From the NCBI RefSeq assembly GCF_053078305.1, contig NZ_CP166879.1: a stretch of 64,000 nt of DNA, one strand, 5' to 3'. The position numbers and the translations under genes were made by a program. How positions within the stretch are numbered: the stretch's first letter is position 1; each line of letters starts with the position of its first letter. Of the stretch, positions 3,904 through 63,619 are shown in pieces. Under the pieces are notes generated by a model. That model was not told where the DNA came from and searched no databases. It worked only from the letters and a program-made list of their open reading frames with translations.

Positions 3904-5293
3904 AATTACACTCGCTGAAATATGTACAGATATTTCATATGGATATACAGCAAGCGCAACTGCGAAACCTGTTGGTCCTAAATTTCTCCGTATAACAGAT
4001 ATACAAGGAGGCAAGGTCAATTGGGAAAATGTACCTTATTGTGAAATAGATGAGAAAGACTCTTTAAAGTATTTATTGCAAGATGGTGATATCGTAATCG
4101 CAAGAACCGGAAACAGTACTGGCGAAAACTTTATATTTAGCTCAAATACAAAAGTAGTATTTGCATCATACCTAATTCGGTTCCGTATTGATCCAAAGAA
4201 AGCAAATCCCAAATTTATTTGGCTTCAAATGAGAACACCTCAATGGTGGAGTTTTATTGATTCCGTAAAAACTGGCTCAGCCCAAGCTGGAGCTAATGCA
4301 AAGGTTTTGGGACTGTATGAGGTTGAATTACCCGAAAGAAAAATTCAAGACCACATTGCTGATATTGGATTTAATTTACTAAAAAAACAGGATATTAACT
4401 CCAAAATAAACCAAACCCTGGAACAAATGTCCCAAACCCTGTTCAAATCCTGGTTTGTGGATTTTGATCCAGTGATTGATAACGCTCTGGATGCAGGAAA
4501 TCCAATCCCGGAAGCCCTGCAAACTCGCACCAAATTGCGTCAAAAAGTACGTAATAGTGCAGATTTTAAACCACTTCCGGCGGAAATCCGCTCGCTTTTC
4601 CCAAGTGAATTTGAAGAAACGGAGTTGGGTTGGGTACCTAAAGGTTGGGATGTCGTAAAAACTGAAGATATTGCTATAAAAATTGGCATGGGGCCGTTTG
4701 GTTCAAATATTAAAGCATCACAATTTGTTAGTAGCGGTATCCCAATCATTAATGGCCAACAACTTAAAGGGCTTATTTTAGAAAAAAATTTTATCAACTA
4801 TATTACTGATGAGCATGCAAATATTCTCAAGAATTCATTAGTATATGAACACGACATTGTGCTAACTCATCGTGGCACACTTGGTCAAGTTTCATTAATA
4901 CCAAAAAGAAAGGGAAATGAAAAATTTGTAATCTCTCAGAGCCAATTCTACTTAAGAGTTGATAGGAAAAAATGTTCACCTTTTTATATGATACATTTTT
5001 TAAAATCTAGAATTGGTCAGGAAGCATTACTCTCCAATGCTTCTCAGGTGGGGGTTCCTTCTATAGCTCGTCCATCAACCCATTTAAAAAAAATAACTTT
5101 CATAAACCCACCATTATCACTGCATAAACTCTTTGACAATGAATTTGAAGTGATACTAGAAAAAATCATGAATTGCAAAGAGCAGTCACTGGCCCTAACC
5201 GCACTCCGCGACACCCTGCTCCCGAAACTCATCTCCGGTGAGCTATCCCTGGAAGATCTTCCGGATCTCACCACCGATACAGAAGCCGCATAA
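3893..5293 (+). CDS. hsdS: Type I R-M specificity subunit HsdS
   Basis: The start ATG at 3893 overlaps the hsdM stop (ATGGGGAGTAA). The two-target-recognition-domain layout is typical of HsdS. The middle of the gene is AT-rich, as expected for variable recognition domains. Confidence 0.7.
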
Positions 5294-58285: not shown

Positions 58286-59154
58286 TCACATAAAAAGATT
58301 ATTAATTAGAGTACACTGTTGACATCCATTAATATCTACAGCTTTTAAAAAATCTGTGTTACTAATCAAAACAGCATTACTAACACCTGAAAACTGCAGC
58401 TGTGCATACATACCTAAGATAGATTTTTTTTCGTAATACTGAGATCTTCCTGTATAACTTTCACCAGTATTAGAACTTATAAATCGCCTCGTTCTTTCTT
58501 GTATCAATAAATTATTTTTAAGGAAGCTCAAAATATCTTGCTGCAATTGTTTGTTTTTGTTATGAAAATAACATAACAATTGATCCTCTAAGGTACCAAG
58601 CTGAGTGTTAACGTCATGAAAAATATACCCCCCCATTCACTCCCATTAAACTCAATAATACTTCCATTGGAGAGTTGAGTAGTATCTTCTAAACCTATCT
58701 CATTTTTAATCTCTGTTATTCTGGCATCAATGCCAAGTTCATCAGCATCAAAAAAATATAAAAATCTATATGCAATTTCTATACTGAAGTCATCTGTACC
58801 AGAAAGTTCTTTATACATAGTGACTAACTCAGCCCTTTCACGACTTCTGCCATCACCATTTAGATTATGTATAAAAATTAAGTTCCCGTTATGATAGAAA
58901 CAAACAGAAGGTAGTTTTGGCCCGTTTGGCTGAAAGCCAAGTTTTTTATCTGGAATTCTTACTTGACTTAGTTCTTTTTCAAAGCGTTTATCAAACGGTG
59001 GAGGTAATTGACCAATTTTAAGATCTTGAAGTTGGAATCCATTAACTAAAAGAATTCTGCTAAGAAAAGCGACGTCATGCTGTCCTTCACAAAAGGCAAC
59101 TATGACTCTATTATAAGATACACTCACAATTTTAGCCTCTAATATCAAGATCAA
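58286..59154 (-). pseudogene. Toprim-like (OLD/AriB-like) gene split by a frameshift at a G7 tract
   Basis: ORFs 58588-59154 and 58286-58636 overlap across a C7/G7 homopolymer (58628-58634). The N-terminus has VAFCEGQHD and a later FFDADELG (Glu … DxD), suggestive of a Toprim fold. Fusing the frames gives an approximately 300-aa protein. Confidence 0.45.
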
Positions 59155-61369
59155 TATTTTTTATCAAATAGCCAAATCTTTCGCCATCAGCCCTTTTCAC
59201 TACTACTTTATCGTCAACTTTGCTTAACTGAAATCCAGTAATGCAATCATTATTATAATCATTATTTAAAAAAGCTCTGATACATTCACCCGAATGTGAC
59301 GTAAGGAACACTTGCACATTGAAACGTTCTGCAAGTTGTTGCGTAAATTTAGTAAACTCCAATAGTAAACTATAATGAATCGCAGTTTCAAATTCATCAA
59401 TAAAAAGTACACCGTTACGACATGCAGCAAAAGATAAAGCTATATAAAAGATGCGCTGAATACCCTCTCCATAAGAAGTAAGATCGAAACTTCTGTTAAA
59501 ATCATATGCTGATTCTACGATAAACCTTTTGAGCTCCATGTCTTCAGTAAATCTGACATCTTTTATCGTTGGCTCAATTTTATTCATGAATTCAATAACA
59601 AGGCCGATAGCGGATTGTATATTTAAATCATCTGATTCTGAGTCAGTTACAGACGTTAAATTTGCACCTATACTTTTGTTATAATCAGTGAGCAAATCGT
59701 CTATATCGTAGAAATAAGGGCTTTTAAATGACGATGAACACAAATGCGAAACTTGATCAGCGTTCCTTCTCATACGTTCATGGATAAAAGTATGGACTGT
59801 GTTATTTCTAAATTCTCCATCAATGCTAGACTTTAAGCTATAAGATGCTATATAGTCATCTTGTTTATCAATTGAAGAATCATCATATTTAATCATTTCA
59901 ACAGTAACATTACTATCATCAAATACTCCTGACAAGATTATTTTATCTTGGAAAAGAGCATTTAGCAATGTTGGACTCAAAGTACTGATTTTATTTTTTT
60001 GCCTAATAAGATTAAAATGCGATGAAATATCATTACGCTGCGTCAATAAGTAAATTGCTTCAAGCAATGAAGTTTTTCCAGCATTATTAAAGCCAGCAAT
60101 GATATTAATCTTATTGAAATTATCCAATGAGAAGTTTTTAAAGAATTTATATTTTTTGATATAAATGGATTTAAAATGTTTTTTTACTCCATACTCAAAA
60201 TTAGTTGTATAGTTTCCTCCTTCGATATTTATAGCCATCTGCTTTGGCATTATTTGTGTTAGTTTTTCTTTTGCATCATCTAATAAGCGCAAATCCTCTT
60301 GGTTTATGAGGCTACTATATAGATTTAAATCCTTTAAGGCGTCTTCAAGCTTGCTTAAAGCATTTTTATAGTTTTGCTGATTTACTGAACCGCTCGCAGC
60401 TAATCCTCTTGCAAGGCTACGTTCATCCTCCATTACCTTCAAGGCTTTTTCATTATTGATGAACAAAGCAAGATCTCGTATCTCAAGAGATTTAGTAATT
60501 ATAGGTTCTAGCTCAACGTATTCACCATTACTTTCCTCTTCAATATCATCTTCTAGCTCATTTTTCTCAAGGTATTCATCTGTTTTAGAGATCCACGAAA
60601 AAAGCCTATCAAGATTCACTAAATTTCTAGCATAATAACCGTTATCACTCCAGTCTAACCAAGATTTAATTACAGGCTTTTTGATTATTTCTTCAAAAAT
60701 ACCAAACATACTTGGTTCGAATTGCTCACCATACTCACTTGTTTTATATAAGGAAATTAGATTATAAACTCTAAGCATAGAGCGAAGACGCGTTTTAGAA
60801 ATACCGAGCGAACTAACTAGCTCATCTTCTTTTTCAACATACTCATCTCGAGTTTTGTCTTCATATGGTTTTAAAAAATCATAAAGCAGTTTGGACTGAT
60901 TATATGTTGACCACTTTTTATTACCACTTATATGCTTTAATCCCATTACAATCAGATGTTTTTCAACATCTTGATTATTATGGATTTCGAAAGGAACACT
61001 TCTAAAAATAGATGGATCTAGTTTTCCAATATCAAACCCCTTTTCATATGCTTCTTGCAATGCTTTCAGCGCCGTTACACGACGATTTCCCTCAAGGACT
61101 AAATAATTGTTATCTCCTAAATCCTTTACTTGAATAACATCAACATCTAAGTATCCATTAGATTTAAAACTTGCTATTAGATCTTTGATATTCTCTTGTC
61201 TATTTCCTTCTATAAAAAAGCGAGTCCTACGCTGAATTGTTGGATCTAGCATGTCCTTTTCTGAGACTGGCTTGTGCTGGTCATTGTCAACAAAACGGTA
61301 GTTATTAGGATCTAGAAATAAATTTTTTAAATTTTTGCTAATGCGCGGGCGAATTTGCTCGACATTCAT
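59132..61369 (-). CDS. Fusion of an N-terminal ParB/Srx-like domain with a C-terminal ABC-type (SMC/RecF/OLD-like) ATPase
   Basis: 745 aa. ParB box LVLEGNRRVTALKAL near the N-terminus; Walker A GFNNAGKTS, Walker B LFIDEFE and H-loop LTSHS in the C-terminal half. Low GC. Confidence 0.6.
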   Translation of the reverse strand: MNVEQIRPRISKNLKNLFLDPNNYRFVDNDQHKPVSEKDMLDPTIQRRTRFFIEGNRQENIKDLIASFKSNGYLDVDVIQVKDLGDNNYLVLEGNRRVTALKALQEAYEKGFDIGKLDPSIFRSVPFEIHNNQDVEKHLIVMGLKHISGNKKWSTYNQSKLLYDFLKPYEDKTRDEYVEKEDELVSSLGISKTRLRSMLRVYNLISLYKTSEYGEQFEPSMFGIFEEIIKKPVIKSWLDWSDNGYYARNLVNLDRLFSWISKTDEYLEKNELEDDIEEESNGEYVELEPIITKSLEIRDLALFINNEKALKVMEDERSLARGLAASGSVNQQNYKNALSKLEDALKDLNLYSSLINQEDLRLLDDAKEKLTQIMPKQMAINIEGGNYTTNFEYGVKKHFKSIYIKKYKFFKNFSLDNFNKINIIAGFNNAGKTSLLEAIYLLTQRNDISSHFNLIRQKNKISTLSPTLLNALFQDKIILSGVFDDSNVTVEMIKYDDSSIDKQDDYIASYSLKSSIDGEFRNNTVHTFIHERMRRNADQVSHLCSSSFKSPYFYDIDDLLTDYNKSIGANLTSVTDSESDDLNIQSAIGLVIEFMNKIEPTIKDVRFTEDMELKRFIVESAYDFNRSFDLTSYGEGIQRIFYIALSFAACRNGVLFIDEFETAIHYSLLLEFTKFTQQLAERFNVQVFLTSHSGECIRAFLNNDYNNDCITGFQLSKVDDKVVVKRADGERFGYLIKNIDLDIRG

Positions 61370-61630
61370 ATGTCACCTCAATGGTGTAGGAACTATACAA
61401 TGCAACTTTACTTGATACCTCAGCAATCAACAACTTCATGTTTTTGAAACTAAGCGCGCGCAGCCCCGCACGCCTGCCCGCTTCGCTTAACAGACTGGTT
61501 TTCATGCACCTCATAAATCGTCTCAGAAGCCACCAAACAAGGGTTTTCTCGTCAAAAATGGTGCATAAGACTCATGCGTTTTCATGCGCCATAGACATGC
61601 ACTCATTCGCTCTCATGCCAGCCAGGAAAA

Positions 61631-61662
61631 GGGGATAAAAAATCCCGGTACTGGACCGGGAT
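61631..61662 (-). terminator. Intrinsic terminator after the ogr/delta gene
   Basis: The minus strand reads ATCCCGGTCCAGTACCGGGAT followed by TTTTTAT, 21 nt after the stop. Confidence 0.55.
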
Positions 61663-61682
61663 TACGTGGGCGTTCTTTCTAA

Positions 61683-61964
61683 TCAGACAGGAATCTGCTG
61701 ACGGCTTGACAGTTTTGACGCGGAGCCATAGCGATTAAGTGTTTGCTGTTGTTTTTCCGGGGATTGTGCTTTGTCTGATAGCTGTTCATTGCGTCGGGGT
61801 TTCATGATTATCTTATCCACACTCTCCAGTGCCGTAAATGTGCAGGAACATTCCAGATTCTGGCACTGATACCACGAGCGTTTAACTGACGGAGCTTCAT
61901 AGGCTGCTGTTCTGGCGTGTGCAACTGTACCGCATTCCGGACATTTAAGTGCCATTAATATCAC
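61683..61964 (-). CDS. Ogr/Delta-family zinc-finger late-gene activator
   Basis: 93 aa with a CPECG…HARTA…YQCQNLECSCTF four-cysteine motif, like P2 Ogr and P4 Delta. Confidence 0.8.
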   Translation of the reverse strand: MILMALKCPECGTVAHARTAAYEAPSVKRSWYQCQNLECSCTFTALESVDKIIMKPRRNEQLSDKAQSPEKQQQTLNRYGSASKLSSRQQIPV

Positions 61965-63252: not shown

Positions 63253-63276
63253 GGCTTCTCCTGTCGGGTTGGTTCG

Positions 63277-63332
63277 TTACGTCAATTGTGTCGTGGCTGA
63301 CACAAGCACACTATCGGTGCTCAGTGTGTGGT
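63277..63332 (-). promoter_or_regulatory. Two TGT-N12-ACA dyads (candidate Ogr/Delta activator sites) upstream of sid
   Basis: TTGTGTCGTGGCTGACACAA (63276-63295) and TGTGTGGTGGCTGGCACA (63315-63332), about 38 bp apart. Confidence 0.45.
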
Positions 63333-63430
63333 GGCTGGCACAACGGGCGCTTGCGGTTATTCAGACGTGGCTATGAAAGCCAGCCAGATAAAAATGCCCT
63401 CAGTTTCAGTCTGCTTTATGTCCCTGATGC

Positions 63431-63619
63431 GGTGGAACAGGTGAAACATGTGTTACAGCTTTGTTTTATAAAGCACTTATATACACTGCACCGGTGGAAC
63501 ATCGCGGGTAACAAGGTGGAACAGCGGATTGGCTGGCGTTACATCTGTTCCACCTCACTATTTCAGAAGGTGGAACAGGTTCAGCCCTGTAAAATACGGT
63601 TGTTCCACCTGTTTCACCT
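63431..63619. repeat. Iteron cluster: about 8 copies of GGTGGAACA/TGTTCCACC in both orientations (P4 crr/ori-like)
   Basis: Perfect copies at 63431, 63493, 63515, 63546 (rc), 63569 and 63601 (rc), plus variants GGTGAAACA (63441) and TGTTTCACC (63611). P4 crr/ori carry TGTTCACC repeats bound by the alpha protein. Confidence 0.6.

Follow-up and report, generated by a model that had tools for sequence, protein, structure and literature searches.

Tandem TGT-N12-ACA dyads mark a probable Delta/Ogr-dependent late promoter in front of sid in a divergent P4-like satellite at leuX of E. coli

In a 64-kb stretch of E. coli DNA (the window), which corresponds to the fim-nan-leuX region, two copies of the dyad TGT-N12-ACA lie upstream of a minus-strand sid homolog. 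The question raised by this locus is whether these dyads are the binding sites of a late-gene activator or whether they serve repression, RNA folding, or an unrelated DNA-binding protein, or are simply chance matches. TGT-N12-ACA is the consensus of the P2 late promoters, and CX2CX22CX4C is the signature of the Ogr protein (PMC3931495). Ogr binds inverted repeats centered at approximately −55 and works via RNA polymerase's alpha subunit (PMC3152322). The late genes of both P2 and P4 are activated by Delta and by Ogr (PMC8628076), and P4 delta, psu, and sid are trans-activated by Ogr (PMC7552001). From the comparisons described here, the two dyads very probably form a Delta/Ogr-dependent late promoter, equivalent to P4 Psid, in a P4-like phage satellite integrated at leuX, and this promoter would operate with positive feedback. 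The design itself is already known from P4 and is here re-identified in a divergent, uncharacterized satellite lineage.

Both dyads are perfect matches to the pattern (Table 1), with TGT and ACA separated by exactly 12 bp in each, as the initial annotation of this region had proposed. The two copies are 38 bp apart and identical at 16 of 18 positions. The placement given initially needs correction: the interval 63276-63332 takes in the proximal dyad and only the first 8 bp of the distal dyad and is off by about 10 bp, and the distance of 25-80 bp before the sid start codon becomes 35-52 bp and 73-90 bp upstream when the two spans are measured from the sid ATG (63252, minus strand). The pattern specifies six bases only and is low in information, and the pair could in principle consist of chance matches; eight other matches occur in the window, one of them inside delta. 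However, the pattern is rare, with a total of 10 in the whole 64 kb against 15.7 ± 3.8 in shuffled sequences. At the window's density, two dyad starts would fall inside a given 56 bp with a probability of ~9e-5, and only ~0.1 close pair is expected by chance in the entire window. As a separate observation, the match inside delta (61926-61943) is exact and spans the codons of the CPEC zinc-finger motif of Delta; it is also present in loci whose Sid is 99-100% identical to that of the window and is probably a coding coincidence.

Table 1. Coordinates of the dyads, the core promoter elements, and the sid-psu-delta genes in the window
Feature	Position	Strand	Basis or remark
Distal dyad, TGTGTGGTGGCTGGCACA	63325-63342		Exact pattern match; TGTGCCAGCCACCACACA in sid-strand sense
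Proximal dyad, TGTGTCGTGGCTGACACA	63287-63304		Exact pattern match; TGTGTCAGCCACGACACA in sid-strand sense
Weak −35-like hexamer, TAGTGT	63308-63313	minus	17 bp from −10; T1 and G3 alone conserved
Inferred −10 hexamer, CACAAT	63285-63290	minus	Conservation over 18 lineages
Predicted transcription start, A/A	63277-63278	minus	Inferred from the conserved −10; leader of ~26 nt
sid Shine-Dalgarno, AGGAG	63258-63262	minus	One G column invariant in the 18-lineage alignment
sid homolog, 247 aa	62509-63252	minus	PDB 7jw1 Sid, E = 4e-10
psu homolog, 183 aa	61961-62512	minus	PF07455, E = 1e-44
delta, single-domain Ogr/Delta zinc finger, 90 aa from ATG	61683-61955 (ORF to 61964)	minus	PF04606, E = 1e-15
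Intrinsic terminator, 9-bp stem then TTTTTAT	61641-61663	minus	20 nt past the delta stop

The genes behind the dyads were identified as Sid, Psu, and Ogr_Delta by Pfam, PHROGs, and PDB comparison, and they follow each other in this order, which bears out the earlier statement that an Ogr/Delta gene is encoded two genes downstream. The sid stop and the psu start have 4 bp in common, and delta begins 5 nt after the psu stop; this tight packing, together with the terminator after delta, indicates that sid-psu-delta is one transcription unit. The window Delta carries the CX2CX22CX4C arrangement, with C8, C11, C34, and C39 aligning with the cysteines of Ogr and P4 Delta, and is 36% identical to P2 Ogr and 35% identical to the N-terminal half of P4 Delta; a near-identical Ogr/Delta gene in RefSeq has 273 nt (90 aa). 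Public records name the Sid homologs of this lineage "septation initiation protein" or "phage polarity suppression protein" (e.g., locus L001, 8360-9103). Neither name fits capsid size determination, and the first seems to come from an acronym that was wrongly spelled out.

Judged by its gene content, the host element is a P4-like phage satellite integrated at leuX. P4-like satellites have a core of integrase, primase (alpha), an AlpA-type HTH, sid, psu, delta, and cos and sit at a tRNA gene. Of these, sid, psu, and delta lie in the window, and the integrase, primase, and HTH genes were seen in near-identical genomes, where the DNA past the window end encodes a TOPRIM/DUF927 primase, DUF5375, an Icd-like protein, an HTH regulator, and a tyrosine integrase, the last adjoining tRNA-Leu or tRNA-Arg. 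The 3′ end of the alpha-like primase gene (minus strand) is at ~63653, about 300 bp upstream of the promoter. Between this end and the sid promoter, an iteron cluster (63431-63619) holds about nine copies of GGTGGAACA/TGTTCCACC in both orientations, an arrangement resembling P4 crr. In the related loci L001 and L121, int, HTH, Icd-like, primase, iterons, sid, psu, delta, and cargo all run in one direction. Downstream of delta, a G+C-rich stretch noticed by eye (~61455-61485) lies where P4-like elements carry cos and is a candidate only. Blastn (DNA) and tblastn (protein) searches of a GenBank phage collection returned no match; P4 is apparently absent from that collection, and the lineage is too divergent.

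A consensus promoter scan of 63253-63400 on the sid strand found no self-sufficient sigma-70 promoter, which is expected of an activator-dependent promoter. Relative to the inferred start (~63278), the distal dyad is centered at −55.5 and the proximal dyad at −17.5; the latter sits in the spacer between −35 and −10, and its right ACA belongs to the −10 hexamer. In the GenBank record of P2, the activator sites are centered at −55 (PO), −56 (PP), −55.5 (PV), and −58 (PF) from the mapped starts, and the distal dyad is presumed to be the activating Delta/Ogr site.

To place the dyads in a wider context, we turned to related loci. Scans with an alignment of Sid homologs gave 12 loci from genome contigs and 53 more from viral contigs, with Sid 41-100% identical, from Enterobacter, Citrobacter, Pantoea, Mixta, and metagenomic viral contigs; the P4 Sid sequence was taken from the PDB 7jw1 alignment and then used as the query to retrieve P4-type loci. 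In a survey of 115 usable loci, which was anchored on the dyads themselves, the pair is kept in 114 with its copies 38-39 bp apart, a count that overstates the number of independent observations because the loci are kin. The sole exception has a proximal site that reads TGT-N12-AGA. All informative loci have the distal dyad 86-93 nt before the sid ATG, and the density of dyads is 12.1/kb in the 170 bp before sid versus 0.32/kb in the remainder of the same loci. The pair thus recurs at shared positions in P4-type and other related loci despite strongly diverged flanks and inner bases, and these comparative data refute the reading as chance matches, whose probability we regard as negligible.

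Within the dyads, conservation is concentrated in the half-sites. When representatives of 18 lineages, P4-type included, are aligned with MAFFT, 11 of the 12 half-site bases are invariant. These include each TGT triplet and the distal ACA; the remaining base is shared by 17 of the 18 lineages. In the CACAAT −10 hexamer, C, A, A, A, and T are invariant, and the third base is kept in 17 lineages. Further invariant columns are T1 and G3 of the −35-like hexamer, one base of the ribosome-binding site, and the sid ATG; CTG and C columns upstream of the distal dyad also score as invariant and were set aside because the window sequence is partly misaligned there. The inner 12 bp of the dyads drift. 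When TGT-N12-ACA is compared with the four annotated late-promoter sites of P2, the agreement is 5/6 at PO/PP and PF, and the spacing differs at PV. Therefore, the six-base pattern is not required and does not by itself fully define a site, and the sites of the satellites match it better than those of the helper.

The drift of the inner bases also bears on whether the dyads could act as RNA hairpins, i.e., as a terminator, attenuator, or processing signal on read-through from the primase operon, rather than as DNA sites. A short stem could form from each dyad, and the primase operon points toward the dyads in this lineage, with no intrinsic terminator detected in between. However, the region folds no better than shuffled sequences (z = −0.99), and its best fold is without dyad hairpins; complementarity between the inner arms of the distal dyad reaches 1.44 of 6 positions, a random value that limits conserved pairing to 3 bp per arm, and no compensatory change was seen. 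Moreover, no T-run follows either dyad, and P4-type elements keep the dyads despite a primase operon that diverges from sid. On the fold score and the random complementarity of the inner arms, we rejected the hairpin reading and consider it very improbable; drifting inner bases together with the lack of a significant RNA fold instead point to DNA sites read by a protein.

The dyads could also bind a different factor. One candidate is a host regulator such as CRP, whose sites have outer bases similar to TGTG...CACA, and another is the satellite primase (alpha), considered together with the iteron cluster, which lies 90-280 bp upstream of the distal dyad. The CRP consensus is TGTGA-N6-TCACA, with 10 bp and not 12 bp between TGT and ACA. 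In contrast, the spacing in the dyads is exactly 12 in every lineage, and a CRP site was rejected on these grounds; the iterons (GGTGGAACA) differ from the dyads in sequence, and none overlaps them. Binding by such another factor is highly unlikely.

The proximal dyad deserves separate consideration. Its right half overlaps the −10, and part of its conservation could stem from sigma-70 instead of the activator. Its left TGT (63302-63304) occupies a spacer position, where sigma-70 reads nothing, and is nevertheless invariant in the 18 lineages, which argues that the proximal site is selected in its own right, family-wide. On this alignment, such selection is seen for the one-domain Delta (here) and the two-domain Delta (P4) alike, and the proximal dyad is conserved to the same degree as the −55 site in lineages that share only 24% Sid identity. 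The dyads could alternatively be operators for negative control, by which sid-psu-delta would be silenced in the prophage or the level of Delta capped, with the same or another protein bound chiefly at the proximal dyad and the distal dyad not needed for activation. A site between −35 and −10 and centered at −17.5 would be in a classical repressor position, and it is this site whose left TGT is invariant though unread by sigma-70 and that is kept in nearly all of the surveyed loci. However, a promoter that is essentially without a −35 calls for activation and not repression, and the predicted position of the distal site is the one that the P2 record and the literature assign to the activator. 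Repression from the proximal site is moreover compatible with Delta/Ogr-dependent activation and does not replace it; as the sole function of the dyads, negative control appears improbable.

The activator reading gains from a comparison with P4 Psid, made here with P4-type loci, in which Sid agrees with the solved P4 Sid (PDB 7jw1) across the 218 residues that were compared. In both systems, the promoter lies before sid and has two perfect dyads, 38 bp apart, at positions −90 and −52 relative to the ATG, a CACAAT −10 that overlaps the right arm of the proximal dyad, iterons just upstream, and an activator gene within the operon. Where the window has its GGTGGAACA/TGTTCCACC iterons relative to Psid, the P4-type loci have GGTGAACAG repeats. 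On P4 Psid, Delta is reported to leave footprints at −55 and −18, in work by Julien and Calendar in J Bacteriol in 1995. We take these footprints to reflect the same 37-38 bp geometry as that of the window dyads. The initial proposal that the dyads are Ogr/Delta-type activator sites at a P2/P4-type late promoter appears well founded, in view of the gene set, the P4-type positions, the conservation of the half-sites, the predicted geometry around −55, and the CX2CX22CX4C motif of the activator gene.

The two systems differ in several other respects. There is no detectable DNA similarity beyond the conserved bases, and identity to the P4 proteins is only 24% for Sid and 29% for Psu. Delta is a single 90-aa domain here and a 166-aa two-domain protein in P4. 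Here, the primase operon lies directly upstream and runs in the same direction as sid; in the P4-type (locus L122), it is divergent from the sid operon. The gene order is sid-psu-delta here versus sid-delta-psu in P4, and this "swap" order is a known minority arrangement, found in 20% of P4-like elements (PMC8628076). P4-type elements have a third perfect dyad, TGTTCCGGCAACCTTACA (L122, 8841-8858), which lies ~100 bp upstream of the divergent HTH/primase operon, is conserved in >30 loci, and probably represents the PLL site; for the window lineage, a search of the early region (L001, 13380-14100) for a PLL-type dyad gave no perfect match and none convincing at 5/6. With the P2 promoters PP, PO, PV, and PF, the window promoter, judged from its predicted start, shares a partly dyadic site at about −55, a weak core, and an activator of the same zinc-finger family. 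However, the P2 late promoters have one annotated site each, compared with two perfect sites here, the second of which is inside the core promoter.

Taken together, a conserved but imperfect −10 and an almost absent −35 suggest that RNA polymerase needs help at this promoter. Such help would come from a small zinc-finger activator, either the satellite's own 90-aa Delta or the Ogr of a P2-like helper that infects or is induced. The activator would bind the distal dyad at about −55 and recruit polymerase through the alpha subunit, as in the P2 late promoters, and activation is most likely of the Class-I type from this position. Transcription would then proceed through sid (capsid size determination), psu, and delta and end at the terminator behind delta. 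Because delta lies in the operon that its presumed sites would drive, positive feedback on Delta synthesis is plausible, and Delta would also be able to switch on the late genes of the helper. The self-contained late-activation circuit suggested initially is in this respect partly supported, by the position of delta within the operon and the terminator after it, but the loop would still need a seed, which could be helper Ogr, basal transcription, or read-through.

The lineages differ in what read-through could contribute. In the window lineage, the primase operon runs toward the dyads, and the DNA in between showed no intrinsic terminator; therefore, read-through could prime Delta in this lineage. 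In the L007 type (Mixta and related lineages examined), a strong hairpin followed by UUUUU abuts the distal dyad (2867-2910; −20.1 kcal/mol, z = −3.1) and is apparently a terminator for the operon upstream, and no significant hairpin was found at the corresponding position in the window lineage (63343-63400) or in the P4-type. The proximal dyad, at about −17.5 in the core promoter, would be a second binding site for the same activator and could serve fine-tuning or self-limitation, as a brake or timer, or could help in open-complex formation. That the dyad near −18 is obligatory in the whole satellite family, as a possible brake or timer on the Delta loop, and that Delta seeded by read-through makes late activation independent of a helper here is a tentative proposal that we hold to be rather doubtful.

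These results locate the probable regulatory switch of a common, uncharacterized P4-like satellite lineage, the satellite region being found in 332 of 5426 complete E. coli genomes, and they indicate that the whole family keeps the two-site layout of the P4 sid promoter, whatever the number of Delta domains or the gene order. They may be useful for annotating satellites, for forecasting which helpers trigger them, and for reusing promoter/activator pairs as genetic parts. The present understanding of P2/P4 late control is unchanged by the finding at the sid promoter.

Several further observations were made around the promoter. The hexamer ATTGAC (window 63278-63284, minus strand), directly after the proximal dyad, was considered as a −35; since what follows 17 bp further on is the ribosome-binding site and not a −10, this reading was rejected. 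ATTGAC is nearly invariant in all non-P4 lineages, and P4-type loci have ATTTTC in its place; it lies at about −8 to −3, and the −10 does not account for its conservation. A T-run followed by (C/T)CTGGCTGGC occurs twice on the minus strand, at 61617-61640 (TTTTCCTGGCTGGC, just past the delta terminator) and at 63376-63395 (TTTATCTGGCTGGC, upstream of the distal dyad), and CCTTTTCCTGGCTnGCC recurs upstream of Psid at a variable distance in most lineages, including the P4-type.

A second perfect dyad pair, with its copies exactly 38 bp apart, was found in L079, a related satellite contig without psu, at 4321-4376. It precedes a gene for a 103-aa tail protein (phrog_103), just past the presumed cos region, and could be a neighboring P2-like late promoter that shares the two-site design. 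In the window, the variable cargo after delta and the presumed cos is the PADLOC candidate defense system PDC-M38 (58286-61369, minus strand). Its M38A gene (59132-61369, minus strand) encodes a 745-aa protein that combines a ParB-like N-terminus with an AAA_21/AAA_15 ATPase. M38B is divided between two minus-strand ORFs, 58588-59154 and 58286-58636, which cover profile positions 2-168 and 163-278; it is a single 280-aa gene in a 98.9%-identical genome, and the split is a probable frameshift in this strain.
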